IMG/VR virus record: IMGVR_UViG_3300012573_000004
Length of the DNA: 64,000 nucleotides
Reading direction: 5' to 3' (one strand)
Source: a virus
Lineage: Duplodnaviria > Heunggongvirae > Uroviricota > Caudoviricetes
Position numbers and translations under genes: made by a program. This document shows, piece by piece, positions 4,649 to 57,670 of the stretch (position 1 is the stretch's first letter; every line of letters starts with the position of its first letter). The notes beneath the pieces are model-generated. The model worked only from the letters and a program-made list of their open reading frames with translations, did not search any database and was not told the DNA's origin.

Positions 4649-4692
4649 ATGCACCTTTTTGTTACAGATTATACAAAGAGGTGCATTTTTTA
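4649..4692 (+). terminator. Rho-independent terminator downstream of the clamp gene
   Basis: atgcacct...aggtgcat stem followed by TTTTT. Confidence 0.6.
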
Positions 4693-4735
4693 TGTCCCCT
4701 TTATACCTGTGCAGTGTTCAATGACACTTTGTGTC

Positions 4736-4749
4736 CCTTTTTGAAGATA
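4736..4749 (+). promoter_or_regulatory. TTGTGTCCCTTTTT motif copy. Representative of at least 14 plus-strand copies (a degenerate ATGTCCCCTTTAT copy also lies at 4691).
   Basis: Exact motif read in the sequence. See the findings for the full list. Confidence 0.5.
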
Positions 4750-5042
4750 CCTGATGAAAGCTATTTCCAACAATGATTTTTTCGACCCCCTCCTCTAATA
4801 AGATCAAGGGGAGAATACAGCTTTTTTACAGCATTATTACTTCCTCATTTTTCAAGTTGCCTATTTATATTCAAGAATATAAATGCAATGTGCATGCTTT
4901 GACCTGCTGTTTTATAACCACTACCCCCATTTTCTACCCCCGTAGAAGTCAAAAAACTTGCGCTGTTCATCTTGCTGTGTCATACTAATAACCACAAGGA
5001 AAAACACACCATATCAACACTTCTTAAAGGAGAAAAAATATC

Positions 5043-7610
5043 ATGCGTTATAACACTGGCGTATCTACTATCAGCAATGCACAGTCTAATCTTATGACTG
5101 TAGATCCTGACAAGGCTGCAAAGGTAGCAGCAATGCTTGTCAACAACTACACCTCCTATGTCACCCCTGTGCGAGAGGTCATCATCAATGGTTTGGAAGC
5201 TGTTGAGGGTCAAGAAGATGGTCATGTCACAGTAGAGTTTGATGCTCAACTGAAAAAGGCCACTTCTGTTTTCTCCAACTATGACATCAATGGAGAAAAT
5301 GACTACACCATTCATATCACTGATAATGGCTGTGGCATGAGCCATGACTTTGCTAAGAACAAGTTTGTTCACCTGACTGCTTCCAGCAAGGATGACTCTG
5401 ATGATTCTATTGGTGGCTTTGGTATTGGTGCTAAGGCTGTAGCTTCCATTTCCCACCACACTGTATTCCGCACTGTTCAAGATGGTGTTGCTACTGTCAT
5501 TGTCTTTGGCATGTCTGACAAGGGTGCCACCACCTCTGTTAGTGATCCTATGGAAGTAGATGAGCCTAATGGCACTAAGGTATCTATCCATGTGGATCAG
5601 GATACTTTCTATAGCATCATCTCTGATATTGAAGAACAGTTTCTTGACTGGATTGATCCTGAGACTCCACTAACTGTTTCTTCTCCTGAAAGGGATTTTC
5701 AGGTAGGCAAGAAGTCTCAGGATACATTCCATTCTTATACTCATAGCAATGGTGTTGTAGTTCATATGGTAAAGAACAATGATAAGGGTATGTTTAGTTT
5801 TAATCCTGCTGACTCTATGCTTCGCTGTGTAGGAATGCCTTATCCTGCTACCAACTCTATGAAGAATTCCTATGAGATTGGTGCTTCTTTTGTCAGGGCT
5901 TTGAACGGTGTTATCCCAGGAGCGCAAGTAAGAAACAATAGTTTCTACCTCATCATTGATGTTCCACCACGTGATATCACCATTGACTCTAGCCGTGAGC
6001 GTGTAGCTGATACTGTGCATCTTCGCACTGTCATTGATGAAGCTATTGATGCTGCTGTAGAGGATTATGCTTATAGCATTGCACATAACCTTAAAAACTC
6101 TAAGGATAGCCAGGAGTTTTTTGATAAGATCGTTCAAGGATTCCCCTGTGTTGGACTCACCCTACGTAGTGGAGCATTGGGCAATGCTAACTCTATTGTG
6201 GAAGATTACACTACCTATGTAGAAAAAGATAATGATCTTGAGGGCAAGGGTATCTTTATTATCAATGATGAAGATGATAAGTGCTACAAGAGCGGAAATC
6301 TATATGAAATGGATAATGATTCCATTAGGTACATTCTTGATGCGTGGCGTGCAGAGTCTATTTCTCGTGTTTTTGCAAGCTCTGACAGTATTGATGATGC
6401 TTTGGGTGTTGATACACACAAGTGCTCTTTTGTGGTAGTTGTTGATACCAAGAATGGTGGCTCTACTACACAGATCAACGGTGGCGGTCTCTATGATAAG
6501 ATTCTTCCAGATTCTTTCTTGAGTCTTTTTGATGACAAGGAAGACATTGATCTTACTATGGAACTTGTTAAGTGGCATCTTGACATTAATGCTTATACTG
6601 CACCTAAGAGCTACCATGCTATCCGCAAGTCTATGATGACTCGTGGACGTGGCAAGGGCAAGAATGGTTCCCATTCTAAGCGTGAGATCTTCTCCTATAT
6701 TGACAACAATGGAAATCGCAAGATTGTCACTGCTGGTGATGCCAATGATATTCTTACCCAGTGGAAGAATGATAACATTTCTACCCTTGTTCTACTTCAA
6801 GACAACAATGACAATACTGGTCTTGACTACTATCAAGAAACACTAAAAAACATTGACAAGGTTGTTCAAAAGGTCTATGGCACAGATCACAAGGTAGTAT
6901 TTGTTTCTGCTAAGCGCTGTGATACTGTGGCAAAGAATGTGCGCATCTTGAAAGAAAATGCTGACAAGGCAGTAATGGAAGTCAATGAAGATATCCTTGA
7001 TGGTAAAGATGTCACAAACTCTATGTCTCATATCACCAAGGATATGTCTCAAGGAATGGGTTTCTTGTTCTTTGAAAGCTCTCTAGACAACTTCTTTGGT
7101 GGCGAGTATGTCAATAGTGGTATTGGATACAAGTGGCTAGATGCTGAATATGGCAATGGCACTATCCAGGATATTCTTGTTGATTACTTGAATCTAGATC
7201 CTGAAAAGTATCACAAGGCTAAGGAAAATATCATTGAAACTATCAATGTTGTTTCTGATGACGAACCTCAATCTCCTGATGACACCTCTGTAGATTACTA
7301 CCGTGCTATTACTGGAAGTGCTATTGTTTCTGCATTCCACAAATTCTACTACAGCCTTGGAAACAAGGATAAGACCCTTGACACTGTAGGAAAGCTCTTT
7401 GCTGATGGTGCAGATTACGATGAATACACCCGCCGAGTGCAAATCCTTTTCAACGTTGTAAACTATACTTGCAAAAACCATGTTGGATACAGTGGTATTA
7501 GCAACAAGGAATCTGCTAAGTTTATGGGCAATACCATTGCTACTGCTCAAGAGCTTGCAGACAATCCTGACTCTTTGGCAACTCAAATGATGACAAATGG
7601 CTGGGTGTAA
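5043..7610 (+). CDS. GHKL-superfamily (Bergerat-fold) ATPase; MORC/Hsp90/MutL-like, function unknown
   Basis: N-box REVIINGLEAV. G1 box TDNGCGM. G2 box GGFGIGAKA. SD aaggagaaaaaatatcATG. Confidence 0.55.
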   Translation: MRYNTGVSTISNAQSNLMTVDPDKAAKVAAMLVNNYTSYVTPVREVIINGLEAVEGQEDGHVTVEFDAQLKKATSVFSNYDINGENDYTIHITDNGCGMSHDFAKNKFVHLTASSKDDSDDSIGGFGIGAKAVASISHHTVFRTVQDGVATVIVFGMSDKGATTSVSDPMEVDEPNGTKVSIHVDQDTFYSIISDIEEQFLDWIDPETPLTVSSPERDFQVGKKSQDTFHSYTHSNGVVVHMVKNNDKGMFSFNPADSMLRCVGMPYPATNSMKNSYEIGASFVRALNGVIPGAQVRNNSFYLIIDVPPRDITIDSSRERVADTVHLRTVIDEAIDAAVEDYAYSIAHNLKNSKDSQEFFDKIVQGFPCVGLTLRSGALGNANSIVEDYTTYVEKDNDLEGKGIFIINDEDDKCYKSGNLYEMDNDSIRYILDAWRAESISRVFASSDSIDDALGVDTHKCSFVVVVDTKNGGSTTQINGGGLYDKILPDSFLSLFDDKEDIDLTMELVKWHLDINAYTAPKSYHAIRKSMMTRGRGKGKNGSHSKREIFSYIDNNGNRKIVTAGDANDILTQWKNDNISTLVLLQDNNDNTGLDYYQETLKNIDKVVQKVYGTDHKVVFVSAKRCDTVAKNVRILKENADKAVMEVNEDILDGKDVTNSMSHITKDMSQGMGFLFFESSLDNFFGGEYVNSGIGYKWLDAEYGNGTIQDILVDYLNLDPEKYHKAKENIIETINVVSDDEPQSPDDTSVDYYRAITGSAIVSAFHKFYYSLGNKDKTLDTVGKLFADGADYDEYTRRVQILFNVVNYTCKNHVGYSGISNKESAKFMGNTIATAQELADNPDSLATQMMTNGWV

Positions 7611-7626
7611 CATTTAGTAAATAGAA

Positions 7627-7660
7627 AACCTCTCCCCTTAGTGGGAGTGGTTTTCATTTT
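7627..7660 (+). terminator. Rho-independent terminator after the GHKL ATPase gene
   Basis: Imperfect stem acctctccc/gggagtggt followed by a T-run. Confidence 0.5.
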
Positions 7661-7860
7661 TTATTTTCAATGATTTTGTGTCCCTTTGGAAGTATTCTAT
7701 CCTGCATACTAGACAACATGATTGCTGTATGATACAATTGAACACGTAAGAAAAACACACCAGAAAATATCAAAAAATGTAGTATATCTACTTGTCAGAA
7801 CCATGACTGACTGATATACTAATGAAATATAACCCAATCATTTATGAAAGGAACAAAGAA

Positions 7861-9608: not shown

Positions 9609-9628
9609 TCTTTCATCTTAAAACTTTA

Positions 9629-9671
9629 CCCCTTGTGCATTATGTGAGGTGATGCACAAGGGGTGTTTTTT
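9629..9671 (+). terminator. Rho-independent terminator (12-bp perfect stem ccccttgtgcat/atgcacaagggg plus T6)
   Basis: Read in the sequence. Confidence 0.8.
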
Positions 9672-9742
9672 GATCATTTATTTTTGTGTCCCTTTTTCCT
9701 ATCAAGATGACACTCCAAGATGCAAAAAAAAATAAATGACAA

Positions 9743-10112: not shown

Positions 10113-11906
10113 ATGGCAAGAAGAAAGACACGCAAATCACCCGCTAGGCGCTCACGTAAGCGCTCAACATCTTCTAAGAAGTCAACTACCCTTAATAGCT
10201 CACAGAAGTCCTTAAAACAGCGTCAGAAGGCTCCTTGGGATAGGTTGAAATTAGCAGGATACAGTACCCCTATTATCTATCAATTCCCGTGGGAGGATAG
10301 AGCATTATCTAAAGTGGCACAAGCTGAATACTTCCCTGGTATTGGGTATGTATCTTTGAAAGAAAATCCTCTCTTTAAAGACTATAGGATAAAAAACTAC
10401 TCTTGGGAGAAGTTCATAGAAGATAAAACTAGCAATACAACATCTACTCCTTTCCCAGAAGGAGAAGATCCTTATGTTTTAAGAGAAGATCAAAAAGAAG
10501 ATGTTGCAACTATCATTAAAGCTTATAATGCTGGTGCTCCTGAATTCTTGATTGCCAATGCTACTGGTACAGGAAAAACAGTTACTACCCTTGCAGCATT
10601 AGATGAGCTTAATCCTCACAGTGTTCTTATAGTATGTCCTACAGCAGTTATTCCTGTATGGAGAAGACATATTGAAGATATGGGTGATAAGGGAAGGAAG
10701 TATGTTATTATCAACTATGAATCCTTGAAGAAACTTGTGTCCCCTCCTGATGAAGCAGTTAAAGCTAAAAAGGCAGCAACTCAAAATAAACACATTTCTC
10801 TATCAGGAAAACCTTATACACATTTTGATGCAGTTGTCATTGATGAAGCACACAAGACTAAAAACCCTACTGCACAACAATCACGCATATGCTCTATGAT
10901 CTCTGCGCATGCACGCTTTACTCTAAGGCTCACAGCTACCCCTGGAAAGAATCCTTCACAGCTTCATTACTTGTATAGACTTTTATCTTTTAATACTGGG
11001 GATAACATTGAAGTAAAAGATGATAAAGATTTCTCCCGCTATATTTCCTGGTGTAAAAAGCATCATGTTGATGGCATTGTCTCTGCTCCTTTTGGAAATG
11101 GTATTACCTTTGAAGGCGGTAGTGACTCTGTAAGAGCTATGGAGAAGATACTCTATGGAAAAACTACCCACGGTGTTACAACAGCCATAAAGAAGAAACC
11201 ACACAATTGGGATAAAGTAATAAGACAACCCTACCCTATTGACATTTCTGCACAAGAAAAACAGGACTATCAACTTCTAGTAGAAGATGTAAAAAACATT
11301 ATGCTCAATGCTGGAAAATCTAGAAGAATGGATATGTCTAAAGGTATTGCTGCAATGATGAAGATGCGTCAAAAAGCTGGTCTTTTAAAAGCATCACATA
11401 TTGCCAACTACACACAGTATTGTGTTCAAGATCTAGGAGAACAAGTAGTTATATCTACTGTATTTCACAACACTGCAGAAGTCATTGAAGAAAAACTTCA
11501 TTCCTTAAAGATTGACTGTGTAACTATCACAGGAAAAGACTCTGCTGAAGACAAAGAAGATAAAAGACTAGCCTTTCAACAAGGTAGAGTCCCTGTAGTC
11601 ATCACCTCTATTACTACAGGTATTTCCTTACACAGCAATGAAGAATCAGTAGGAGGAAACTCTACTCCTCGCAGGCTCATTGTAGGAGATATCCACTTTT
11701 CTCCTATTGAGCATACACAGCTAGAGGGAAGAATCAACAGGAATGGAGAAAGCGGGATTGTAGTCATTCCTATGCTTGCTGATACAGTAGATGAGAAAGT
11801 TGTATCTACTTTACTTCATGGTGTAGAAACTCAATCTATTCTTCAATCACATGGCGATGAAGATGATATTGCTTTTCTTGCAGATGCACTAGGAGTAAAA
11901 CTTTAA
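10113..11906 (+). CDS. SNF2/DEAH-box superfamily-2 helicase with a basic N-terminal tail
   Basis: Walker A GTGKTVTT. DEAH box VVIDEAHKTKN. Motif VI QLEGRINRNGESG. SD aaaagaggataggttatctATG. Confidence 0.75.
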   Translation: MARRKTRKSPARRSRKRSTSSKKSTTLNSSQKSLKQRQKAPWDRLKLAGYSTPIIYQFPWEDRALSKVAQAEYFPGIGYVSLKENPLFKDYRIKNYSWEKFIEDKTSNTTSTPFPEGEDPYVLREDQKEDVATIIKAYNAGAPEFLIANATGTGKTVTTLAALDELNPHSVLIVCPTAVIPVWRRHIEDMGDKGRKYVIINYESLKKLVSPPDEAVKAKKAATQNKHISLSGKPYTHFDAVVIDEAHKTKNPTAQQSRICSMISAHARFTLRLTATPGKNPSQLHYLYRLLSFNTGDNIEVKDDKDFSRYISWCKKHHVDGIVSAPFGNGITFEGGSDSVRAMEKILYGKTTHGVTTAIKKKPHNWDKVIRQPYPIDISAQEKQDYQLLVEDVKNIMLNAGKSRRMDMSKGIAAMMKMRQKAGLLKASHIANYTQYCVQDLGEQVVISTVFHNTAEVIEEKLHSLKIDCVTITGKDSAEDKEDKRLAFQQGRVPVVITSITTGISLHSNEESVGGNSTPRRLIVGDIHFSPIEHTQLEGRINRNGESGIVVIPMLADTVDEKVVSTLLHGVETQSILQSHGDEDDIAFLADALGVKL

Positions 11907-12404: not shown

Positions 12405-12442
12405 CCCCCTAGCAAAGAATAATCTTGCTAGGGGGATTTTTT
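12405..12442. terminator. Bidirectional rho-independent terminator (ccccctagcaa...ttgctaggggg plus T6) between convergent genes
   Basis: Read in the sequence. Confidence 0.85.
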
Positions 12443-12464
12443 GTGTCCCTTTTATATAAAGAGA

Positions 12465-13769
12465 CTACTCATTGTCCTTCTCTTCATTGTTTTTCCCTTG
12501 GGAAGTATTATCTTCTGACTCTTTGTTTTCTTGTCTATTATCCTCCAGTGGAATAGCTCCAGCTTTCTCCATAGCTTTGTGATAAGACTTAGCAGCTTTT
12601 TCTTTCTGCTTTCTTCTCTCACGAAGTTGCTGAGTAGACTGTGATTCATCTGTTTCCTGATAACGGAATTGAGGAACAACCCAACCACGGTTTTGAGGGC
12701 TAGAAGAACCTCCTACACCCTTCTTTTTGTTGGTATTAGCAAAACGAGCCTTAGTCAAGGAACGTCCTACCTGTGCAATAGTTCCAGCAAAGTTAACCCT
12801 TTGATCATCAGGGAGATTTTTAGCGTTATTAGCAATCATTCCACGGCGAGTGGTAGCAGCATGAAGAGAATCAAATTCACCCAACTTGACAGTGACATCT
12901 TTACCTCTGGTATTGGTAAGCATATGTCCTAGTTCTTGAGTGTTTTTATCCACTGGAGAAGCATCCTCAAAAGAGGTTGCTACAGTAGTGCGCATTGACA
13001 CAACATACTTGCCATCTTTGTTTTCTGTAATATGCATGTCATGGCGTCCCTCTACTACAGATCCATCTGGCATAGAAAGACGAGTCATTTTAGTCAAACT
13101 GTCAGCAGCTTTACTACCAATCTCTTCTCCATCAATCTTTTTTGGAGGTCTAGTTGACTCCTCTTTTCTCCATGCAGAATCGGCACCAGTTTCTACCCAT
13201 GTAGATGCACGCTGTAGCTGTTCATCACTAAGATCATCAAGTTCTACTTTTTGAGGTTTTCCTGTAGTGTAGTCAATCCCTGATTTGTTGCGTTGTGCTC
13301 TAGGAGAAAACTCTGCACCACGGTTGATTGCTTCTTGTCTAAGTATTGGTCTTTCACTAATAAACTCATGATAGTCCTTATAGGAATCATCCCTTCTAGC
13401 GATACCTTCTTTCAAGAGCTTATCATAACGCTCAATCTTGCCTTGCTTTTCCTCCCACAGTCTTAGAGCACCTTGCTTAGAAGGAGAAGGTTTGCGTTTA
13501 GGCAAAGAGTCTTGCACCTCTTTAATCTGCTCTGCAAGGTACTCTTGTCCAGCTGGAGTAGCATAAAACACACGGTTTGCCTGCTCCATGCGAAGCTCAG
13601 CATTGTGTAGGCTTTTAGCTACTTTTTCTGGCATAGGGTTGTCATTGCCGCCATCTTCAAAAGGTTGTGCTTGTGCTTGTGCCTTTTGAAGATTTTTCCT
13701 TGCTGCTGCATGACGTTTTCTACCACTATTAGAACACCTTGGGCCTGGTCTTGCTCTACACATGTTCAT
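12465..13769 (-). CDS. Hypothetical protein (basic N- and C-termini, Q/K/E-rich)
   Basis: 434-aa ORF with no recognisable motifs. Confidence 0.5.
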   Translation of the reverse strand: MNMCRARPGPRCSNSGRKRHAAARKNLQKAQAQAQPFEDGGNDNPMPEKVAKSLHNAELRMEQANRVFYATPAGQEYLAEQIKEVQDSLPKRKPSPSKQGALRLWEEKQGKIERYDKLLKEGIARRDDSYKDYHEFISERPILRQEAINRGAEFSPRAQRNKSGIDYTTGKPQKVELDDLSDEQLQRASTWVETGADSAWRKEESTRPPKKIDGEEIGSKAADSLTKMTRLSMPDGSVVEGRHDMHITENKDGKYVVSMRTTVATSFEDASPVDKNTQELGHMLTNTRGKDVTVKLGEFDSLHAATTRRGMIANNAKNLPDDQRVNFAGTIAQVGRSLTKARFANTNKKKGVGGSSSPQNRGWVVPQFRYQETDESQSTQQLRERRKQKEKAAKSYHKAMEKAGAIPLEDNRQENKESEDNTSQGKNNEEKDNE

Positions 13770-13928
13770 CCCTCTTTCTTTTATATATTATTTGTTGTAA
13801 TAAGATTACATTGTTTAATAATAACAGTGTCCCCTATCACTGTGCATTAGATGATTTTTGACTTTTTATCCACTTATGTCTATTATAAAAATACACATAG
13901 GAAAACAACTACTAGAAAGGATATACCA

Positions 13929-15292: not shown

Positions 15293-15489
15293 TATGGTGT
15301 CACCTTCCAATTGTGAGGTTAAAAGATTGAAAAAATGTATATAACATATGATAACAGGAAAGGTGCTTATCCTGTTATAGTTGTTACTGGTGTGTTTTAA
15401 AAAAGTTTGTGTCCCTTTTTTATAACACAAAAATAACCTCTTTTCCTTGTAAAAGATTAACCTACAGGGAAAAGAGGTTATGAGCTATC

Positions 15490-17123: not shown

Positions 17124-17357
17124 CTACTTATCTAGCATGTTTGTGTCCCTTTTTCTAAAAGAAGAATGGAATGTGAGAAATGCAGTATAGAGCACTAATA
17201 CCAGTACTATAATACCTCCTCCTCTACCACTATAATGCTCTATAAGGAAGAGCAAAAGAGCACATGTGCAAAACACACATGTGCTCAACAGCATTATCTT
17301 TCTAGCTATCAAAGAAATATCCCTTGATAACATCATAGACATACCAGTATCCTGCAA
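17124..17357 (-). CDS. Small membrane protein
   Basis: ORF with two hydrophobic segments. Overlaps the upstream ORF. Confidence 0.35.
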   Translation of the reverse strand: MQDTGMSMMLSRDISLIARKIMLLSTCVFCTCALLLFLIEHYSGRGGGIIVLVLVLYTAFLTFHSSFRKRDTNMLDK

Positions 17358-18657: not shown

Positions 18658-18881
18658 AGATAAGTGCCTTTCTAGATAGTTTTTGATAGTTCATAGTAGA
18701 ATAGATATTCTTTACAAGAGAGAATAATACTATGCTGCATTTTATCTGTCAAGAAAATAGGAAAGAAATATACATTGTCAATGTGTAAGTTTTTGTGTCC
18801 CTTTTTAAGATTCTATAAAAAACCCCTTTGATCTCTTGTAAAAAATCAAAGGGGAGGATGAAAAGTGGCTTTTGATATCAC

Positions 18882-19082: not shown

Positions 19083-19223
19083 ATAGTTTGTCCTTTGTCT
19101 AGGGTACAGTTTCTTTCTATGTGTTATGTGAAACACATTGCAAGCATTTTATCACCAAAAGGGAACATTTTGCAGAAAACAAAAAAGAAACACCGCTAAT
19201 AGTTTAATCAACGGTGTTTTTGG

Positions 19224-19296
19224 AGCCTTCTATCGGGATCGAACCGATGACCTACGCATTACAAGTGCGTTGCTCTACCATCTGAGCTAAGAAGGC
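19224..19296 (-). tRNA. tRNA-Thr (anticodon TGT)
   Basis: Reverse complement GCCTTCTTAGCTCAGATGGTAGAGCAACGCACTTGTAATGCGTAGGTCATCGGTTCGATCCCGATAGAAGGCT. Anticodon loop CTTGTAA. Confidence 0.85.
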
Positions 19297-25274: not shown

Positions 25275-25946
25275 ATGACAATAACGTTTCTTATTGCTCA
25301 AATCCTAGGATTTTGCGCTGCTGGTGCAGCATGTATGCAACACCCATCTCATGTGATTTACCTTTGGGGACATAGAAAAGATGTTTCTATTCTTAAAGGT
25401 TTATCTCTGTTATCTATCCTTTTTACTACTGCAAACTCTATTGCATGGGGTGTATATGGATTAATGTACAAAGCTTACCCCACAGCACTTATTTCAGTAT
25501 CAGGAACCATTGTCATGGCTATCACAGTAGGAATCCTAGTTAAAGCGCGCATGTGGAAGATTCCTGCACTGATAGGATATATACTTTTTATCTTGCTGTT
25601 GATATTTTTGTCCCTTATAGCACCACAAGATCAACTAGGTTTTTGGGGAAATATGATTTCTATTGAAATGTGGATTCCAGCTGCATTAAAAGTTGTCAAA
25701 GTCAGAAACACACCAGCAGCTTTATCTTATCCTCCTGTAACATCCTGGACAATCATCATCACCAATATTCTATGGATATCCTATGGTGTTCTTTTGCAAG
25801 ATATATGGCTATGGCTTTCTGCACCTTTTTCCATCACGTGTGCTCTCATGATGCTATGGGCATATCACAGCACAAAGAAACACCTTGATGGTCATGCAAC
25901 CCATATCATAGAAGAAGATCACTCTTTAACTTCTGAGAACTCATAA
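25275..25946 (+). CDS. Integral membrane protein (multi-TM)
   Basis: ORF with six or seven hydrophobic segments. Confidence 0.55.
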   Translation: MTITFLIAQILGFCAAGAACMQHPSHVIYLWGHRKDVSILKGLSLLSILFTTANSIAWGVYGLMYKAYPTALISVSGTIVMAITVGILVKARMWKIPALIGYILFILLLIFLSLIAPQDQLGFWGNMISIEMWIPAALKVVKVRNTPAALSYPPVTSWTIIITNILWISYGVLLQDIWLWLSAPFSITCALMMLWAYHSTKKHLDGHATHIIEEDHSLTSENS

Positions 25947-26368: not shown

Positions 26369-26641
26369 ATTGATTTCATGTCCCCTTTATGAGTTGATTA
26401 TTCCTTAAAAATGTGGTTTATATTTTATTTCCTTTTACAGTATAATCACCCAACGCTTTTTCCCATAATCCCACACCTTATCCAACTCATTAAGCTCAGC
26501 AAGTTGAGATTCAGTAAGACCATCTATATATTTTAAAGCAGGATCTTGTTGGAATCTGGAAATCCTATAGTTAAACTTATGCTTTCTTTCCATTCCAACT
26601 TTGTAGTAGTAATCAGGATGAAGATCACCATCAAATATGAA

Positions 26642-28036: not shown

Positions 28037-28114
28037 GGTATTATTCACCTCTTTTCTGATATTTTGCTATGCTCTTACTTAAAGAGTATAGCACATAAGA
28101 AAGTGATAAGTAGA

Positions 28115-35922: not shown

Positions 35923-36033
35923 ATAGTTTTTCCTATTCTAGGATACATTTTTATCCTTGTTTTTGCTGGGATGAGAAAAACCCCTGAATCCTTATAACAG
36001 GAAACAGAGGTTTGATTCTATAAAACTACAACA

Positions 36034-37314: not shown

Positions 37315-37399
37315 GAAAAAAATCCTTCTTTCTCTTATTTTCTATCTCTCTTGTAAAAAATCATGAACTCATGATTGGCAACATGTCTATTGTAGATGT

Positions 37400-38800
37400 T
37401 TACTGTGTTGCATTGTCATAACTGGATGCATGAGCGTTGTGGGTATCTACATCATGGTCATGAGTAACATCTTTTCTCACAGTGCTTTTGTTTCCATAAG
37501 CACTATCTCGTGCAACTTTTTTATGAGAAGAGTTTTTGATTGTCTTGAGACGTTTGTGCAAGCTATCAAATCTCTTACCACTTTTCTTTTCTATTTTGGA
37601 GATTACCTTTTCAGCCAAGGATGCATCAGTTCCTGCCTGAGCATGTGATTGTGCTCCACCTTGTGCTGTTGCATGTGCTGTGTTTTTACCACCAATAGAT
37701 GAAGCATGTGCTGAAGATCGTGATTTGTGTCCCTTATGTGCATGATGAGATGGTTTCTTATTTCCCTTCTTTGCATGATGAGAAGGTTTTTTCCCTGCTG
37801 CTTTAGACTTATGGTGTCCAGATGCAGGCTGAGGAGAAGATACTAGTTTCTCACCTGTAGTCTCGTTAATCCATTTGCCATAAGGAGAAACAAGAGCATA
37901 AAGCACAGTATCAGTAGACTTTTGCCCATCATCACCATGAACAACACCCTGAGACAAAATTCCATAAACTTTTCCATTAATAATAAATGGAGATCCAGAA
38001 TCACCATAGGTAGACTGTCCAGAGTTTAATGTAGCACGCTGAGTTTTCATACCTGGTACAGCACTGTCAGTTTCTACCTTGGGTTGAATCTGTGCAATAT
38101 CAGCAGTGAGATTTTCTGCTTCTGCAGGCACGCCTTGATCATCTACATCACCCCATCCATACACAGAACCAGGGGTAGGAGATTTGACTATGCGGGAAGA
38201 AATCTTTAATGGTTGTGCAGCAGAAGGAGTACTAAGATGAAGAAGGGAAAGATCTACCTTGTCATTGTTGACAACACTATCTACCTCAATTTTATCTGTA
38301 GATTCTGGTGTTTCTCCCAAAGTTACTTCAGAAAATGCTTCTTGTTTATCTACACAGTGTTTTGCTGTAAGAATCCACTCAGGAGCAATGAGAACACCTG
38401 TACAAATAGTAGAACCATATCCTTGACCTGAAGAAATATCATCAGAGTCAGAGGAATCATCAGAAGAATCATCAGTAGAATCTTCCTTATTGTCCTCATC
38501 TTTTACTTCATCAGAATCTTCTTTGTTATCATCATTGTTGCTTGAATCTTCTGAAGATTTTTCATCTGAAGATGTTTCATCTTCTTCATTGGCATAGTTT
38601 TCTGTTTCTTTATCCCCAGTACCAGATTCCTTATTGCTATCTTCTGGGAATGTTGTTTCAACTCTAGCAATAGCACCAACATTTTCTTGATTTTTAGGCT
38701 GAGAGCCATCAACAATAGCAAAAGCAGGTGAAGCAACAACACTTGTTGTTACCACACCTGCACATAGTGCTGCTACATATCTAGACATGTGCTTAGTCAT
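37400..38800 (-). CDS. Secreted trypsin-like serine protease with an acidic N-terminal low-complexity region and a basic His/Lys-rich C-terminal region
   Basis: Signal peptide. His motif TAKHC. Ser motif GDSGSPFI. No TGG tag. Confidence 0.8.
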   Translation of the reverse strand: MTKHMSRYVAALCAGVVTTSVVASPAFAIVDGSQPKNQENVGAIARVETTFPEDSNKESGTGDKETENYANEEDETSSDEKSSEDSSNNDDNKEDSDEVKDEDNKEDSTDDSSDDSSDSDDISSGQGYGSTICTGVLIAPEWILTAKHCVDKQEAFSEVTLGETPESTDKIEVDSVVNNDKVDLSLLHLSTPSAAQPLKISSRIVKSPTPGSVYGWGDVDDQGVPAEAENLTADIAQIQPKVETDSAVPGMKTQRATLNSGQSTYGDSGSPFIINGKVYGILSQGVVHGDDGQKSTDTVLYALVSPYGKWINETTGEKLVSSPQPASGHHKSKAAGKKPSHHAKKGNKKPSHHAHKGHKSRSSAHASSIGGKNTAHATAQGGAQSHAQAGTDASLAEKVISKIEKKSGKRFDSLHKRLKTIKNSSHKKVARDSAYGNKSTVRKDVTHDHDVDTHNAHASSYDNATQ

Positions 38801-46282: not shown

Positions 46283-47415
46283 AGAAATCTAATCCTTTTT
46301 TATTGAAAAACTTTTTTGTATATCCCTTCTACTGTAATAACAGACAATGGTATAATCCAAATTTTAACAAAGTCAAGGATGTAGGGTTGATTTTTAAAAT
46401 ATACCAACTATCTTGTACAAAGAACAAAAATGTTACATGGGAAAACCATGTCCCTTTTAGTGATTGCAAAAATAAAAGCTCTATTTTTCATTCTAAGCCT
46501 TTGAAAACACTTATATGGGTATTTGTACAAATCTCTCCTCTGCAACGCTCTCACAGCCACACAGGGTATCTATTTAGCTCATTTTTTATACAGCATCAGA
46601 AGACATCTTTTCTATATAGGATCTTCTTCTCCTTGAGTTGTTTTTCATCTCTTTGCACAAAAAAAGCAAATCCATTTTAAGAAGATAAACTCTTTTCATG
46701 TAGGACCCTACCTAGATCTTGTGCTCAACTTCTTAAAACGTCTCATAGAACAAAAACTTCTATTTTTACCCTTGAAAAATCACAAAATGATAACAGAATA
46801 ATAACAGAATAATATACTTATTTTTCTCAGTTTTTTCTTAGGAAAATATGAACTTCAGTAGGGGGTAATGTTAAGGTTTCAATTTTTACCAATTTTCACC
46901 ATATCAGCAGGTAGATTTATGTTTTTTGCAAAAACTAGACAGAGCTGTCTATAAAGTTATACAAATGTTATCAAAATTAGTGTTTCTGTGAAATACCTGT
47001 GAATCCTGATTTTTGACAGATCTGTGCTTAAACCCAAAAACATTATCTGGAAGAGACATCTAAGAAGTTCATGGAAGTGAATATTCAAGACAACTAGCAA
47101 AGATTGTCTAAAGCTTCATGGAAATAATGTTTCAAGATCTTTACAAGTTTCAAGATAAGTTGTCTTATGTTCATCTGCAGAATCTTTTTTCAAAAGCTTC
47201 AGCAGATGTCTTAAACGGAATGCTAACGCATTCCTAGAGAAGATTACTTAGAGGTGAATCAAATTGCATAATTTTGTTTAATTTAACCCCCCTATAATTC
47301 CCCCCTAAACAATAGTCACGTGGTAAGTAGACCGAGCCGTCTATCAGAGATTTCACAGAATACAAGATTTTCAGACTATCCCCTGGTAGGGGTATGTTTT
47401 TCCACCTGGGAAAAC

Positions 47416-47450
47416 AGTTTATTCACATTTTTATCCACAGGGTTGTGAAT
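47416..47450. promoter_or_regulatory. Cluster of three DnaA boxes (TTATTCACA, TTATCCACA, TGTGAATAA) inside a 1.5-kb gene desert; candidate replication origin
   Basis: Exact or near-exact matches to the TTATNCACA consensus in both orientations within 35 bp. Flanked by AT-rich DNA. Confidence 0.5.
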
Positions 47451-48065
47451 AACTCTAAATAAGCTTTCTACCTGCTGTTATGTAAAAATGTGATCAAACT
47501 CATATAGGGTTGAAAATGACTTGTTTTTATACCTTGAGCTGTAAGTTAATCTTTTGTTAACCTAATGTTCATCTATTATTTTTATTCATAAGCGGTTTTT
47601 TGCGAAAAAAATGACAAAGGGACATGAAAATAGAACCTTTTTTAGTAGTTAAAAATAACGATTTTTATGTGTTCTACTTCACAAAAACGCCCTAAAAATT
47701 CAACCAATTTCTCCATATAAACGATTTTTTATAAGGTCTGCACTTTTGGTATAAAAAGTGCAAAAACTTAACATAATGGAGATGTTTTCTTGGATTTCTT
47801 TTTCTCAAGTATTGTTTTTGTGTCCCTTTCTCCAAATTCTGTTAGTGGATACAACCCATCATTGGATATATCTTCCTATAGCAAAAAATCACACCTAGAT
47901 CTCTTGTTTTAAAATATCTCTGCAACAGAAGTGAAACACCCCTGAAAAACTAAAAAATATAGCCACATGAGGAAAGAAAAACACATTGAGGTATAAATAC
48001 TCACAAAAACACTTTCAACCGCTTAGAAATCAATATAAAGCTTTTGTTCTTTTTTCTTCTAGAGA

Positions 48066-48108
48066 TTAAAAAAAAGAGACTGATCTTTTAAAAAGACCAG
48101 TCTCTTTT
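48066..48108. terminator. Bidirectional terminator (near-perfect 16-bp stem aagagactgatctttt/aaaagaccagtctctt, A-run plus T-run) downstream of minus-strand gene 48152..49135
   Basis: Read in the sequence. Confidence 0.8.
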
Positions 48109-48151
48109 CAACAGTTGCACAAATGCTTATATTTTTCTATAGAGCAGAAAA

Positions 48152-49879: not shown

Positions 49880-51346
49880 CTAAATGGAGGTGTTATCATC
49901 TATAACCTTGACTGGATTGATAGCATCATTGAAATCAGCCTTGATTGAAGGTTTGAAAAACTCTTCTCTCATACCTTGCGGTATTGTAGGTCTTATAATC
50001 TCTCCACTACCATTCATATGATGTGCATCATATGCGGGCAAGTCAGTGCCCTGTAAAATATACTCATATAGAGCTAGGATGTTGCAAGCAGCATTGGTAT
50101 CAGCATTGCTATCATATCCACAATGCTTACAAAGAAAAATAGATTGACTCTCTCTATTCTTCTTATTTGTATATCCACACTTGCTGCACCTTTGAGAAGT
50201 GTAATAAGCTGGAACATACACTACTTGCTTTCCATTGTTTAAAGCTTTATATTCCAACATGGTACTTATTGTGGAAGGTGAAGCTGAAAGAAAAGATCTA
50301 TTCATTCCTCTCTTTTTCTTTCCACCTTTTTTAGTCATGTTCTTAACCTGGAGATCTTCTAGAACAATCACACCATGTTCTCTAATGATGAAGGTTGTTT
50401 TTTCTTGAAGCCAAGAGTTTTTATATGCAGAAATCTTCTTGGAATAATGAGCACATTTTCTCTTGTTTTCTTGGTAAGTATTTCCCTTCATCACCTTGTA
50501 CATGTTTTCTTTCCCACCAGCTTTTTTAGCTCTAGATCTAGCCTTACCCATTTGCTTTTGATAATACTTCTTCTTAGACTCATACTTATCTAAGAGCTTT
50601 TTATCAAAAGACATAGTTTTTCCATCACTAGTAGCTAGTGGAATGACCCCTCCACGATCAATGCCTACTGCTTTATTAGTTGCAGTAGAGTTCTTCTTAT
50701 TGCAAGCTGGGGTATTAGTAAAAACAACTGTCTTTGAAGACCAATTGACTATGACACTGGTATAGGGGTTAATGTCATCATAGGTTTTTACCCTAATGGT
50801 AATCTTCCAAGAAGATTTGTCCTTGGAGTTTTTCTTTTTATCTTTGGGATTTCTACCACCAATAACAATGACTCCTGTGTTTTTACCAGTTTTATGGTAT
50901 CTAGCATTAGTACCATTGTTATACCAGCATACAAAATATTGATCTTCTTTCTTTTTAGATTTAAATCTAGGCATAGAACCAGGATTAGATACACCTTTTT
51001 CTCTTAATGTTTTTCTTCTTTTTACAGCAGAAAACCATTCAATGTTTTCTTTCTTTTCTGGAGCTTGCAAAATCATTGTTGGAATAGCAGAAAGGAAAGA
51101 ATACTCTATCCTTGCATTTTTGTCAGTGATATTTGCAACATCACTTCCAATGGGGACAAGATTTTTATTCTTGTCATATTTCTTTCTTTTAGATCTATGC
51201 TGATTAAATCTTGTTCTGTATCCATCACATAACCAGTTCATAATCTTATCAGGAGATGTAGTATAAGAGTCAGTACCTTGAATACAACCACGGTAGATAG
51301 GAGCACCTGAGTGTTTAACACTAATGATTTTAGCCTTTTGACTCAT
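49880..51346 (-). CDS. tnpB: TnpB (IS605 OrfB) RuvC-like nuclease
   Basis: RuvC-I AVGIDRGGVIPLATSDGK. RuvC-II VIVLEDLQVKNM. Zinc finger CSKCGYTNKK...CKHCG. RuvC-III SNADTNAACNILA. Confidence 0.8.
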   Translation of the reverse strand: MSQKAKIISVKHSGAPIYRGCIQGTDSYTTSPDKIMNWLCDGYRTRFNQHRSKRKKYDKNKNLVPIGSDVANITDKNARIEYSFLSAIPTMILQAPEKKENIEWFSAVKRRKTLREKGVSNPGSMPRFKSKKKEDQYFVCWYNNGTNARYHKTGKNTGVIVIGGRNPKDKKKNSKDKSSWKITIRVKTYDDINPYTSVIVNWSSKTVVFTNTPACNKKNSTATNKAVGIDRGGVIPLATSDGKTMSFDKKLLDKYESKKKYYQKQMGKARSRAKKAGGKENMYKVMKGNTYQENKRKCAHYSKKISAYKNSWLQEKTTFIIREHGVIVLEDLQVKNMTKKGGKKKRGMNRSFLSASPSTISTMLEYKALNNGKQVVYVPAYYTSQRCSKCGYTNKKNRESQSIFLCKHCGYDSNADTNAACNILALYEYILQGTDLPAYDAHHMNGSGEIIRPTIPQGMREEFFKPSIKADFNDAINPVKVIDDNTSI

Positions 51347-51449
51347 GGTTTTCTCCTTTCTTGGATAAGAATGTTCTTTGTTATATGATGTGTTAGTAGT
51401 ATAACATAAAAAAGAACACTATGCAAATCATTGCTTCAAGGAGTAGCTT

Positions 51450-51845
51450 ATGGATGGAAATATTAAAACAGAAAATCACATTACTTATGACTGCCATTAC
51501 CATGTTGCATGGTGTACCAAGTATAAGCTTGAACTCTTAAAAGATGGGGTTGATGAGCGTTTAAAGGAAATCATTTATGATGTAGCACAAGAGTTTGATG
51601 CTGTTGTTGAAGAGTTAAAAATCACAAAAGATCATGTTCATTTAATTTTGTCATGCTACCCTCATATTACTCACAAAATAATCAGAACAATGAAGGGTAG
51701 ATCTTCTAGTCTTCTACGAGAGGAATACAGTTTCATCAATACTAGAACCCCTTCCCTGTGGACAAGACGTTATTTCATTGCTACTACTGGTGAATCACAG
51801 CTAAGAAATATTAAAAGGTACATAGAAAATCAAAAGAGGAGATGA
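51450..51845 (+). CDS. tnpA: IS200/IS605 Y1 (HuH) transposase TnpA
   Basis: HuH motif HVHLIL. Catalytic Tyr region RRYFIATTGES. Length 131 aa. Confidence 0.8.
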   Translation: MDGNIKTENHITYDCHYHVAWCTKYKLELLKDGVDERLKEIIYDVAQEFDAVVEELKITKDHVHLILSCYPHITHKIIRTMKGRSSSLLREEYSFINTRTPSLWTRRYFIATTGESQLRNIKRYIENQKRR

Positions 51846-51925: not shown

Positions 51926-52244
51926 TATATCTCATCTCTTTCTGATAGATGGTGTGTTTTCCTCTTGAACAACTTCTATATTAGAAGAAAGAAAGAAAGT
52001 TCCCTGTTTAACTGATACCCCATTGTAGGGGTGGTAAAGAAGAGGGTGATATTGTGTCCCCTTATATCACAGTAGATACGCAACACAAAAATGGATAGAG
52101 CGGTTTGTATATTTTAACCTATTCCCACACAGTACCTCCTCACTCTTTTAGCACGCTAATATAATAAGTGGTGGGGAGTTCATAAAAACAAATAAAGACC
52201 CTTGCAAATCTAGCATCTACAAGGGTTTTTATCTGTTTTCTGTC

Positions 52245-52920: not shown

Positions 52921-52923
52921 CTG

Positions 52924-52997
52924 CGCTTCTGACGGGACTCGAACCCGCGACCTCCGCCGTGACAGGGCGGCGCGCTAACCGGCTGCGCCACAGAAGC
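52924..52997 (-). tRNA. tRNA-Asp (anticodon GTC). Notably GC-rich.
   Basis: Reverse complement GCTTCTGTGGCGCAGCCGGTTAGCGCGCCGCCCTGTCACGGCGGAGGTCGCGGGTTCGAGTCCCGTCAGAAGCG. Anticodon loop CTGTCAC. Confidence 0.85.
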
Positions 52998-53602: not shown

Positions 53603-53820
53603 ATCTAGCAAATAAGATAAAAACACCTCTGATAACTCCATACTCTTTCCTGAGATAGCTTGAAACAAGCTCTTTGGATTTTCATACACAAAGAGATTTC
53701 CAGCTGCTTAGAAAGCAATATAGGAGGTATTATTATATTGTGTCCCTTTTACCTTTTCATAAAAAAGAAAAACACCCCTTGGAATACATCTAAGAGGTGC
53801 ATTTAAATCATAGGCTGTTT

Positions 53821-54826: not shown

Positions 54827-56623
54827 CTACATTAACAAAGAATGCACACAATGCATATCTTTTCTAGCATAGTTGGTTTTAGCAGCCTTTTCAGGGTCCT
54901 GGAGAGTATCGTATCTATCTCCATCCACTAAAACTGTCACATCATCATAGTGTGTAGTGGTGCTGTAAGTATTTCCCACCTCCTCCACAAACTTTTGTCG
55001 TGCTTTCTTGAACTGTCTTCCTTTCTTTTTATTATCACATTTTCCTGTAGGTTTTCCTTTCTTCTTTCCAGTTGATTTATAGGATAGAGTATCCTTTGTT
55101 ATAGGTGTTCTTAGATTCTTTTTATTCTTATCTCTTTTATAAGATTTAGATTTTCTTCTAGTAGAAGACATTTTACAAGCAGTAGGTATTGCTCTTTTTC
55201 CTATGTTGTATGAAGCATTGATATCTCTATCTACATCTTCTTTGCACTGTGTGCAATGAGCATTCTTCCATGTATTAAATGTAAGATTACTTCCACAGAA
55301 ATAGCATTGCGTGCTTGTATAAGCAGGATTGACAGTAATAACTCTTCCACCATTGAGTTCTACATATTCAGTAGTCCTTTTAACTAGTTCCCCTCTATTC
55401 CATCTACCACTGCTCATAGTATTTTCAATCCATGAAAGATCTTCAAAAGCTACAACAGCGTTATCCCATATATGTGATATATAAGCTATTTCACCTGCTG
55501 CAATGATTGCAAGTTGCCTTTTCTTGTTGCTGTTTTTCTTTCTTTGAAGAGATATTTCATTTTTGATATCCATATACTTTTTGTCAAAAATAGATGTCTT
55601 GTCTAACTTTTTATGTAGTGAAGATATTTGTCTAGATGTTGCTTTGATACTATTAGATAAAGAATGCACTCTTCTTGACAAAGATGTACTATGCACCACT
55701 CTTCCATTTTTGTCAATGACTGAAACTACTGCATAGTCACTAATATTGACATCTACGCCAATAAAATAGTTGCTGGTTATATCTTTGTAGATGTAAGGGT
55801 ATTCCATAGAAAAATGGAATAATACTTTGTTGTCTTTCACAGTTATATCAGGCAAGCATACTTTTGATGCTTCAAAAAACCTTGATGTGTCAAAATGAAA
55901 GTATAGCAAATACCACTGTCCATCAATAACCATTCTTAGACAAATATGACCATCTTCAAAAGGATTGTTGGTGATATATGCATAGCCTTTATCAACAATG
56001 CTTAAGCTTATCTTGTCCCTTATATCACAAGGGGTTCCTATATGGGCTGTTCTCTTCCATCCTGAACTGATATATTTATCACTTGATCCATTGAAAGCTT
56101 TTATTCTTTCTAACCATGATGTAGCTTCATCTACTACTCTTCTGTGGTACAACCATTGTCTTCTGGAGTTGCCACTGGTTTTTGATACATTCTTTGTGTG
56201 TTCTTTGTAGGATATACCACCATTTGAATAGCTAATATGAGATTCTTTATGTGATGGAATAACACCTTGTGGAAGATTTAACCCTAGAGAAATACCTATT
56301 TTACTTGCATTGTTGAAACCATTGTACCTTTCCATATCATCAAGCAAGTGGATATCATTTCTCAGTGTCCATTCAGCTGCTGCTGTTATTGATTGTATTT
56401 CTTCTTTCAACCTAGCAAGAATGAGCTTTGTATCATCAACATCTTTTCCTGATAAATCATGAATGGAATAAGGTGTTGCAGTAAAGCTTTTATAACACTT
56501 ATTGCTGTTTTTGCTCAATATAATCACCTGCTTTAGATAACAAGCACAAGCTTCAATCGCTATAGCTTCTGCTGCGTGTATGACTATACCACAAGACAAA
56601 AGAAGAAAAAAGGGGAAGCACAC
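54827..56623 (-). CDS. TnpB-like / Cas12-like RuvC nuclease (598 aa with an N-terminal extension)
   Basis: RuvC-I IGVDVNISDYAVVSVIDKNG. RuvC-II AVVAFEDLSWIE. Zinc finger CYFCGSNLTF...CTQC. RuvC-III DVDRDINASYNIG. The ATG at 56623 has the SD caaggagtaaaaagtacATG, and this start lies inside the direct repeat. Confidence 0.7.
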   Translation of the reverse strand: MCFPFFLLLSCGIVIHAAEAIAIEACACYLKQVIILSKNSNKCYKSFTATPYSIHDLSGKDVDDTKLILARLKEEIQSITAAAEWTLRNDIHLLDDMERYNGFNNASKIGISLGLNLPQGVIPSHKESHISYSNGGISYKEHTKNVSKTSGNSRRQWLYHRRVVDEATSWLERIKAFNGSSDKYISSGWKRTAHIGTPCDIRDKISLSIVDKGYAYITNNPFEDGHICLRMVIDGQWYLLYFHFDTSRFFEASKVCLPDITVKDNKVLFHFSMEYPYIYKDITSNYFIGVDVNISDYAVVSVIDKNGRVVHSTSLSRRVHSLSNSIKATSRQISSLHKKLDKTSIFDKKYMDIKNEISLQRKKNSNKKRQLAIIAAGEIAYISHIWDNAVVAFEDLSWIENTMSSGRWNRGELVKRTTEYVELNGGRVITVNPAYTSTQCYFCGSNLTFNTWKNAHCTQCKEDVDRDINASYNIGKRAIPTACKMSSTRRKSKSYKRDKNKKNLRTPITKDTLSYKSTGKKKGKPTGKCDNKKKGRQFKKARQKFVEEVGNTYSTTTHYDDVTVLVDGDRYDTLQDPEKAAKTNYARKDMHCVHSLLM

Positions 56624-56655
56624 ATGTACTTTTTACTCCTTGATAGCGATCAAGC
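56558..56655. repeat. ~100-bp direct repeat, copy 2. It contains the SD, the start codon and the first ~20 codons of the TnpB-like gene.
   Basis: See copy 1. Confidence 0.75.
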
Positions 56656-57043
56656 CCTCTCACCACACAATAAGGAAAACAACAGCAAAGGGCGATCAAG
56701 CTGGTGGAATAAAAAGCAAACATGTGTGCTTTTCCCCTCTATTTATTTATATGAGCACTATATAAGAAAACATCCTTTCCCTCAAGTGCTGTTTTTAAGC
56801 ATACTACATAGGGTAAAAACGTGTCAAAATAAGGTGTATAAAATAGGAGTTTCTGCAGGTGAAAGGTATAAAATATGTTGATTACTTTTACACATCTTTA
56901 CAACTTTGCAGCTTTACAGCTCTACAGTTTCCCCCTTCTCCTTAGTTGATTTCTCTTTTCCCTAGTGACTAGGCAAAGATATTATTAACAAGTATAATGT
57001 AGATCACAATGGAGTTTATCTTTCAAAAGCAAAGGAGTGCTCT

Positions 57044-57505
57044 ATGGAAAACACAAACTATCTTATTACTACCTCTGATGAGAATATGTATTATCTTTTG
57101 ATAGATAAAAAATACACTCCACAAGAAAGCTTAGAGTACTTCCTGCAGTATGATCTCAATGCTTTGCTAGAGTTTATAGCAACAGTAAAGTCATCTTCTA
57201 CTCTGCTCTACTATTGGAGAGCAATAGAATCATTAGATACCCCCCTAGATTACTTCACTCAGTGTCAAGAACTGCTTTTCTCTTTTGTAGGAAATGATAA
57301 TACTCCCCAAGAAATCATCCATGATGTAGCAAGCAATAACACTGTGCTAAAAGATGATAAGTTGGGAGTAGAGCCTTGTATAGCACATATGTTTGCTACG
57401 CATATTAACTCAACTCAAGAACTTATAGAAATATATCATGATAACTTTGATAACCATGAAGATATACAAGATGATTTTAATGAGTTGATGCTTGCTGCAT
57501 CATAG
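57044..57505 (+). CDS. Acidic hypothetical protein
   Basis: ORF. SD aaaggagtgctctATG. Confidence 0.5.
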   Translation: MENTNYLITTSDENMYYLLIDKKYTPQESLEYFLQYDLNALLEFIATVKSSSTLLYYWRAIESLDTPLDYFTQCQELLFSFVGNDNTPQEIIHDVASNNTVLKDDKLGVEPCIAHMFATHINSTQELIEIYHDNFDNHEDIQDDFNELMLAAS

Positions 57506-57670
57506 ATGATATTTGTGTCCCCTTTTGACTTCTTCCAATAGCACTCTTTGAAACAATGCTATATTCTGCTATCATTGTGTATTCTTAAAAAAGATACCCC
57601 CCCCATGCAATCACTTTTTTCTAGACACGTTCCCACTTAAACTTCATAAACCTCAAGGAGATAACAACTT

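Follow-up and report, generated by a model that had tools for sequence, protein, structure and literature searches.

What holds a short, asymmetric DNA word on one strand of a phage genome, whatever the direction of the genes around it? This question is raised by the IMG/VR virus record IMGVR_UViG_3300012573_000004, a 64,000-nucleotide stretch from a member of the Caudoviricetes (hereafter the window), in which the 11-mer TTGTGTCCCTT and its close variants recur in a single orientation. The window is part of an uncultured jumbo phage of ~262–267 kb from human-skin metagenomes, and ~84 kb of the ~265 kb of this phage were read here. We show that TTGTGTCCCTT is a polar cis-acting DNA site of this jumbo-phage lineage, conserved in sequence, strand and position. 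By analogy with phages that carry nicks at defined sites, we tentatively propose that it is recognized by a strand-specific nickase encoded by the phage, a reading that we regard as possible rather than probable.

The preliminary description of the window had claimed a strand bias beyond chance, with one reverse copy at 47617. The bias is in fact stronger than claimed, as exact matches to the 11-mer number 12 on the plus strand and none on the minus strand, and matches with up to one mismatch 20 and none. The 9-mer TTGTGTCCC occurs 16 times on the plus strand and never on the minus strand, a ~50-fold excess over the 0.30 copies expected from shuffled sequences, none of 100 of which reached 16. 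Similar ratios (plus to minus) were found in the window for the shorter words GTGTCCC (20:0), TGTCCC (37:3) and GTCCC (44:4), and words derived from the motif show the greatest strand skew among all k-mers of the window for each k from 5 to 9. The reverse copy, TCATGTCCCTT at 47617–47627 on the minus strand in a gene-free region, is indeed the only reverse look-alike, but it differs from the 11-mer by two mismatches. GTC is present in all variants, and the invariant core of the motif is GTCCC. Position counts around the sites revealed conservation over only ~11–13 nt, with flat profiles outside, and the copies are therefore not duplicated cassettes, repetitive extragenic palindromes (REPs) or miniature inverted-repeat transposable elements (MITEs); nor is the motif the tail of one duplicated terminator cassette. 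As a separate observation, CCCTT alone is distributed 83:40 in the window.

The orientation takes no account of gene direction, as the preliminary description had also noted, with ~9 sites in plus-strand gene contexts and ~10 in minus-strand contexts. Use of the plus strand persists over the next 10 kb past the right end of the window, where all eight further copies of the core are on the plus strand, and no orientation switch was encountered within the ~84 kb that we examined.

The motif was found within 0–7 nt of each position at which the preliminary description had placed it. That description had held all copies to be intergenic, having overlooked four exact copies within open reading frames (10735, 36355, 37725 and 60676) and four with one mismatch (25606, 27654, 34536 and 41103), so that 8 of the 20 sites are inside coding sequence. 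The intergenic enrichment is still real, since 10–12 of the 20 sites fall in the ~16% of the sequence that lies between genes (P = 5e-4), in tandem and convergent spacers and in one divergent spacer. All copies described below are on the plus strand. Within coding sequence, a copy of the form TTGTGTCCCCT at 10735–10745 belongs to the SNF2/ResIII helicase gene, where it spells the codons L-V-S-P. Copies with one mismatch are found at 25606–25616 in a plus-strand gene (TTTTGTCCCTT), at 27654–27664 in a minus-strand TnpB gene (TTATGTCCCTT), at 34536–34546 in a minus-strand gene for a trypsin-like protease and at 41103–41113 in a plus-strand gene for an 896-aa protein with a RibLong domain. Two exact copies, at 36355–36365 and 37725–37735, are read in different frames of minus-strand protease genes, and a third, at 60676–60686, is within another minus-strand gene.

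Between genes, the leftmost copy is the degenerate TTATGTCCCCT at 4690–4700, right after a T-run and conserved in the relative L123. It stands in tandem with an exact copy at 4729–4739, between a gene for a 377-aa protein and rIIA, which has orthologues in the relatives L123, L125 and L126 and directly after which homology to L123 stops. The exact copy at 7676–7686 separates rIIA from rIIB, with a terminator-like hairpin before it and a sigma-70-like promoter after it, and again has an orthologous motif in L123, L125 and L126. Exact copies at 9684–9694, 12441–12451 and 53738–53748 lie at convergent gene junctions, the first 19 nt past a strong terminator hairpin (9627–9665) and the second abutting a bidirectional terminator; at the second, four genomes agree in GTCCCTT but not in the sequence of the adjacent hairpin. 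The degenerate copy (ACA)GTGTCCCCT at 13827–13835 is in the divergent region upstream of a gene for a 434-aa protein, where 'AATAACAGTGTCCC' is kept in L123, L125 and L126 and L210 has a copy at the equivalent position. Further exact copies are found at 15407–15417 (either between two minus-strand genes or, if a doubtful open reading frame with a TTG start is accepted, at its extreme 5′ end; intergenic in L123), at 17141–17151 (between two minus-strand genes, and conserved in L123) and at 18793–18803 (between a minus-strand terminator, 18854–18823, and a minus-strand TTGACA promoter at 18781). Two copies precede minus-strand start codons, namely the core-only TGTCCCCTT at 26379–26387, 10 nt upstream, and TTGTGTCCCTC at 31166–31176, 9 nt upstream, and the complements of both resemble a Shine-Dalgarno sequence (GAGGGA in the latter). 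The form TTGTGTCCCCT recurs at 52052–52062, within a loop closed by a 7-bp stem (GTGATAT/ATATCAC) and ~200 nt from an IS200-like tnpA, and at 57513–57523, 8 nt past a plus-strand stop codon. The remaining exact copy, at 47818–47828, is in the 1.4-kb gene-free region 46681–48151. This stretch, which has no open reading frame, also holds the reverse look-alike at 47617 and a cluster of three DnaA-box-like 9-mers at 47419–47452 (TTATTCACA twice, one of them inverted, and an exact TTATCCACA), and could be an origin or a regulatory region; DnaA boxes with one mismatch number 49 in the whole window against 23 expected, i.e., ~2-fold.

Most copies had been thought to sit immediately 3′ of a rho-independent terminator. 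A terminator-like hairpin is present within ~100 nt of 5 of the 12 intergenic sites (9684, 12441, 18793, 31166 and 53738), but only the sites at 9684, 12441 and 18793 abut one. A weaker 5-bp stem was scored at 7630–7647, ahead of the site at 7676, and a long-loop hairpin ahead of the 4690 copy was read by eye. The hairpins beside the sites all differ in sequence, and the association between motif and terminator is more evident in the relatives than in the window. Some motif complements are positioned 5–10 nt before minus-strand start codons, where they read as Shine-Dalgarno-like sequences (AAAGGGA). We considered ribosome binding as the whole explanation and dropped it, because no plus-strand gene uses GGGAC; the overlap seems to result from the polarity and not to bring it about.

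The copies are under selection as DNA. When codons were shuffled synonymously, preserving each protein and its codon usage, TGTCCC on the plus strand was found to occur 6 times in plus-strand genes (1.9 expected) and 14 times in minus-strand genes (5.7 expected), and GTGTCCC 3 times (0.4 expected) and 5 times (1.0 expected), respectively. The complement GGGAC on the plus strand showed the opposite trend, with one occurrence in plus-strand genes against 6.1 expected and one in minus-strand genes against 5.0. Thus, the motif is selected on one strand and counter-selected on the other, regardless of the direction of transcription. A comparison of the SNF2 gene (597 codons) in four genomes pointed the same way. 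The same codon is used at 20% of the invariant residues, and at 12% of those with four- or six-fold degeneracy, and the longest run of frozen codons, AAGAAACTTGTGTCCCCT (AAG AAA CTT GTG TCC CCT), contains the motif; this run spans 6 codons, and the second longest 3. The sites are also spaced more evenly than expected by chance (coefficient of variation 0.55 against 0.95–0.99 for random placement, P = 0.002–0.003), and this holds if the random draws are made separately for intergenic and coding DNA. Gaps between the 20 sites range from 1.05 to 6.8 kb, with an average of about one site every 3 kb, and the spacing in the conserved core region is 1.0–3.0 kb.

A search for the motif in related genomes, as the preliminary description had suggested, found it in L123, L125, L126, L209, L210 and L211. 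We give counts for these as motif strand to other strand, since L209, L210, L211 and a further contig, L128, run opposite to the window. GTGTCCC counts were 9:0 in L123 (rIIA 87% identical, GC content 40%), 10:0 in L125 (rIIA 47%, GC 49%) and 11:1 in L126 (rIIA 45%, GC 48%). L209, a second contig from the sample of L125 (GC 48%), has 7:0 for GTGTCCC, 12:0 for TGTCCC and 19:1 for GTCCC. In L210 (GC 52%), whose homologue of the 434-aa marker is 51% identical, the GTGTCCC ratio is 13:1 and the consensus is shifted to CGTGTCCCTTTT, and in L211 (434-aa marker 36%, GC 46%) GTCCC is distributed 17:3. Motif, strand and positions are kept in relatives with 32–51% identity in single marker proteins and GC contents of 38–52%. 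The orientation relative to marker genes is shared as well, and in L209 it is the same relative to the acyltransferase gene as in the window. Orthologous copies, intergenic and intragenic, are present in L123, L125, L126 and L210; orthologous spacers retain the motif although the neighbouring hairpins change in sequence, and placement at convergent junctions is kept in four genomes. In L209 and L211, coding sequence contains numerous copies, and these all keep to a single strand. Double or triple tandem arrays occur at 4690/4729 in the window and at 9133/9194/9206 in L126. The motif was not found in L205, L206 and L208, three other jumbo phages that have the acyltransferase or rIIB in common with the window.

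The host of the phage is probably Corynebacterium, judging from the AT3-SGNH acyltransferase encoded in the window, because every named homologue of this protein is from that genus (~40% identity). In 46 Corynebacterium loci (0.98 Mb; the exact host species of the phage is not identified) we counted 57 GTGTCCC and 35 GGGACAC. GTGTCCC ranks 14th lowest of 210 7-mers of the same composition in these loci, with no coherent orientation per locus and no correlation with GC skew, and the core GTCCC occurs 993 and 1093 times per 0.98 Mb in the two orientations. The motif is therefore lineage-specific and does not belong to the host chromosome, and its reader is most probably encoded by the phage lineage rather than the host. 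An uptake signal, one of the earlier suggestions, can be set aside since the motif is rare and non-polar in Corynebacterium; a role linked to packaging, suggested together with it, is compatible with the data.

How could a phage-encoded reader give rise to this pattern? If the motif were read by a phage-encoded enzyme acting on one strand, a site-specific nickase would introduce localized single-strand interruptions into the plus strand of mature genomes. With all sites on one strand, the complementary strand would stay continuous, and placement of the strongest sites between genes would lessen interference with coding sequence and transcription. The purge of the 5-nt core from the other strand would follow because this reading needs one continuous strand. 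Such sites, the nearest parallel on record and one that the preliminary description did not have among its candidates (nor the orientation effect of Type III restriction), have been characterized in several phages. In phage tf, 14 mapped nicks lie in the 9-mer TACT/RTGMC, one per 3.3 kb. They are confined to the top strand, are found with genes of either orientation, and fall partly at gene boundaries and partly within genes; the other strand has no single-substitution variant of the 9-mer, and relatives of tf have nick sites at similar positions (PMC3517423).

The nick-site phages, i.e., T5/BF23, tf and the LUZ24-like phages, and the phiKMV-like phages, have a short consensus, a 7-mer in T5, a 9-mer in tf and a 19-mer in phiKMV. 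Like the nick sites of tf, the motif described here is confined to one strand (20:0, and the same strand in all relatives) irrespective of gene direction, lacks near-variants on the other strand, is found with genes of both orientations and at gene boundaries, has a spacing of ~3 kb and keeps similar positions in related phages (L123, L125, L126 and L210). Unlike them, its sequence is unrelated to those of T5, tf and phiKMV, and its carrier is a ~265-kb jumbo phage of Gram-positive hosts, known from sequence alone; it is also more strongly intergenic and occurs in tandem copies.

Several points weigh against the nickase. We recognised no nickase or other reader protein in the ~100 kb examined, and fold comparisons of the conserved 434-aa neighbour were uninformative. 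A strong intergenic preference, tandem double or triple copies and an overlap with minus-strand Shine-Dalgarno positions are not known properties of nick sites, and uniform orientation was established over about one third of the genome only. Cleavage, the enzyme and any downstream role are parts of the reading that we infer. Moreover, polarity, depletion and even spacing would be accounted for just as well by a signal that orients a translocase or the replisome.

The latter is the principal rival, unlikely in our estimate although a serious contender, namely that the motif is a polar orienting or loading sequence for a phage DNA motor or replisome, akin to the FtsK orienting polar sequences (KOPS), the SpoIIIE recognition sequences (SRS), Chi (RecBCD/AddAB) or permissive sites of the Ter type. 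A translocase would read the motif directionally, wrongly oriented copies would be harmful, and the SNF2/ResIII ATPase, the packaging motor, a recombination nuclease or the replicative helicase would be candidate readers. KOPS, SRS and Chi likewise combine enrichment on one strand with avoidance on the other, without regard to gene direction, as our synonymous-codon shuffles showed for the motif inside genes of both orientations, and the many one-strand coding copies in L209 and L211 agree with such a role, as does the even spacing. These signals are distributed along a whole replicon with their purine-rich form on the G-rich strand. Here, too, the purine-rich complement AAGGGACACAA is on the G-rich strand, where the majority of the genes and every TnpB gene are also located. 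The SNF2/ResIII protein is very conserved (74–76% identical across relatives in which rIIA is only 45–47% identical), and its gene is located in the densest motif region. On the other hand, KOPS, SRS and Chi are host-chromosome signals read by host motors, whereas the motif is specific to the phage lineage and is neither skewed nor over-represented in the 46 Corynebacterium loci, and no phage reader resembling FtsK, RecBCD or AddAB was seen in the loci examined. Known KOPS and Chi sites have no intergenic preference and no T-rich flanks, and the motif, at 11 nt, is longer. In addition, its orientation is constant across the DnaA-box-like cluster at 47.4 kb, and the direction of replication is only surmised. 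Of the earlier suggestion of a replication-polarity oligomer there remains a polar signal at the DNA level, but not a host Chi or KOPS.

A related idea, improbable in our view, is a genome-orientation code in which a phage motor-nuclease or translocase reads GTCCC directionally, either telling self from non-self or being steered. Such a code is conceivable because the phage copies are arranged head to tail whereas the core occurs in both orientations in host DNA. Self could then be marked by the orientation of sites instead of by methylation, in a KOPS-like or inverted Type III logic, and the steering could take place during replication or packaging; one candidate could be built around the SNF2/ResIII ATPase.

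Still less probable is a role in transcription, whether as a promoter, as the site of an operator or activator, as a roadblock in the manner of stoperators or within a terminator. The intergenic enrichment of the motif and its frequent position beside terminators and upstream of sigma-70-like promoters would suit such a role, as would its rarity in divergent promoter-only spacers (about 1 in 10, in a tally from the gene map). The stoperators of the cluster A mycobacteriophage L5 are asymmetric as well, being dispersed 13-mers with >20 copies in short intergenic spaces (PMC9283540). Stoperators, however, are oriented with transcription and need that orientation to work (PMC9283540), whereas here the orientation is fixed relative to the genome, through plus and minus gene blocks alike, and copies inside genes of both strands are under selection. 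The promoter or operator for rightward transcription that the preliminary description had envisaged finds no support, as we detected no second promoter element, no fixed distance upstream of genes and no conserved start region, and many sites face genes of the opposite strand or lie at convergent junctions. Host-type TTGACA/TATAAT promoters and hairpin terminators do occur in the window. We also considered the T4-type late promoter TATAAATA and dropped it (5 copies against 4.5 expected).

Little likelihood attaches, too, to a preferred priming site for the lagging strand. GTGTC, within the motif, is the recognition sequence of T7-type primase (GTC plus a cryptic C, primer pppACAC), and CCCTT, present in most copies, is the site of the poxvirus type IB topoisomerase; both words are read on one strand only. 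Priming would be in line with the invariance of GTC in all variants, with a spacing of 1–3 kb, within the size range of Okazaki fragments, and with the DnaG-type primase encoded in the distant relative L211. Yet priming needs 3–5 nt, for which a conserved 11-mer at fixed sites is over-specified, and does not explain why the core is removed from the other strand; GC skew and the orientation of genes and TnpB suggest, besides, that the plus strand is the template of the leading strand, not the lagging strand. The words of T7 primase and the topoisomerase, being 5 nt long, occur by chance, unlike the motif, and no gene for a type IB topoisomerase was seen in the loci examined.

Slightly less credible still as the main explanation is the evasion of a host Type III/ISP restriction enzyme that needs GTCCC-containing sites head to head, against which uniform orientation would protect the phage. 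A precedent is documented in phage T7, all 36 EcoP15 sites of which point one way (PMC3874151), and the near-total orientation bias of the motif, together with 2 occurrences of GGGAC on the plus strand in genes against 11 expected, resembles that case of an asymmetric short site with all copies in the same orientation. But the EcoP15 sites of T7 are not over-represented, have no extended consensus and no conserved positions, and all T7 genes are on one strand. Avoidance alone does not explain the ~50-fold excess of the 9-mer, the enrichment inside genes, the 11-nt consensus flanked by T residues at GC contents of 38–52%, the conserved positions, the frozen synonymous codons or the even spacing. 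At most, restriction evasion exerts a second selective pressure on a site that is functional, and may contribute to the purge of the reverse core.

Finally, a mobile or repeated element (a REP or MITE, a terminator cassette, an insertion target of IS200/IS605 or IS607, or a DNA uptake sequence) is very improbable, since in spite of the dispersed, mostly intergenic placement and the IS200-like TnpA, four TnpB genes and serine recombinase in the window, the copies share neither inverted repeats nor a hairpin nor homology past 11–13 nt, which also disposes of the REP-like element proposed earlier, are orthologous in distant relatives and hence not recent insertions, do not coincide with the ends of insertion sequences and are not enriched in host DNA.

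The neighbourhood of the sites offers some further observations. The 434-aa protein (12465–13769, minus strand) is 74–75% identical in the GC-rich L125 and L126 and 32–37% in its most distant homologues, and a motif variant is present upstream of its gene in every genome. It had no sequence match in Pfam, PHROG or PDB, and a structural model of fair confidence (pLDDT 74) predicts a helical bundle and a beta-sheet domain with no informative structural neighbour; the conserved 377-aa protein likewise had no match in Pfam, PHROG or PDB. In three relatives, a gene for a small, basic, zinc-ribbon-like protein of 72–77 aa (...CPTGK...YKCxCGYWH...) is flanked by motif copies (L123 9598–9816, L125 9449–9676, L126 9322–9555). 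In the window, unrelated sequence at ~4741–4995 replaces it, the swap beginning exactly past the motif at 4729–4741, and this gene was dropped as a candidate reader because the 64-kb window has no copy of it. In blastn comparisons with L123 (~90% identical), four segments end 9–12 nt after TGTCCC (4741, 7691, 9695 and 12453), and homology resumes 50–250 nt past these breaks. The breaks may reflect fast-evolving spacers or motif-linked recombination; the latter was dropped as an explanation because such breaks are not general in other genome pairs. The ends of contigs from short assemblies do not coincide with motif sites. In L128, positions 1–2874 (~71–73.9 kb in window numbering, past the right end of the window) encode an EcoRI-like methylase beside a GmrSD_N+HNH nuclease, with an adjoining polynucleotide kinase-phosphatase, and the HNH protein is a candidate for a DNA-nicking function. 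Elsewhere in L128 (~65655–67498 in window numbering), two adjoining genes for proteins of 300–307 aa, possibly paralogous, share the core-bearing stretch TATGATA(A/G)ATA(C/T)ATGTCCCTTTATA.

As for the phage itself, the 855-aa HATPase protein encoded at 5043–7610 is found on 262–379 kb contigs of human-skin metagenomes and is taken to be rIIA because the rIIB gene adjoins. The window further encodes the SNF2/ResIII helicase, six tRNA genes, four TnpB proteins, a serine recombinase, an IS200-type TnpA, secreted trypsin-like proteases and proteins with SpaA and RibLong domains; the relatives additionally encode topoisomerase II subunits, a ligase, DnaG primase, Pol III alpha and RNase H. A megablast search of 25 kb against phage and plasmid collections returned tRNA matches only, tblastn of rIIA against cultured phages gave no match, and the SNF2 protein matched only distant helicases. 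Scans of IMG/VR with a 14-mer, rIIA and an SNF2 alignment gave chance matches or none, an initial SNF2 search of genome contigs gave no match, and in the JGI metagenomes only close relatives of the same region were matched.

The six tRNA genes, which serve AT-rich codons (Ile-TAT, Arg-CCT, Arg-TCT, Thr-TGT, Asp-GTC and Asn-GTT), are scattered over the regions 412–610, 2919–2992, 19221–19296, 52923–52997 and 58355–58427, all on the minus strand. Those for Ile-TAT, Arg-TCT, Arg-CCT and Thr-TGT decode codons that are rare in high-GC hosts, and the set fits a phage of 38% GC growing on Corynebacterium. The four TnpB (Cas12f-like) genes, in the regions 759–2835, 26642–28048, 49880–51845 and 54827–56623, are all on the minus strand. 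One is accompanied by the serine recombinase, as in an IS607-like element that is not in L123 and has an extra copy in L001, and another is divergent to the IS200-type Y1 TnpA at 51450–51845 (IS605-like). Several secreted proteins, namely three trypsin-like proteases, the RibLong-domain protein and the SpaA-domain protein (34420–38800, 39383–42073 and 60888–62714), have a common C-terminal tail, GP(E/K/T)VNTGGKV..SF(L/W)DKVK..F, which may be an unrecognised sorting or anchoring signal.

In summary, the motif is best classed with the one-strand sites of phages, as a real, strongly selected and lineage-specific element with a putative role in nicking. We know of strand-exclusive dispersed motifs in few phages only (T5, tf and phiKMV), and to our knowledge the purpose of localized nicks is unknown even in T5, having been unclear for ~60 years. 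To these the present case adds a polar motif conserved across a deep lineage of uncultured jumbo phages from human skin, with positive and negative selection at the DNA level, even spacing and an intergenic preference. It provides a comparative handle on the purpose of such polar sites, as well as a simple sequence marker for the lineage. Should the sites turn out to orient a motor or to mark self DNA, rather than being nicks, they would represent a new principle of phage genome organisation.

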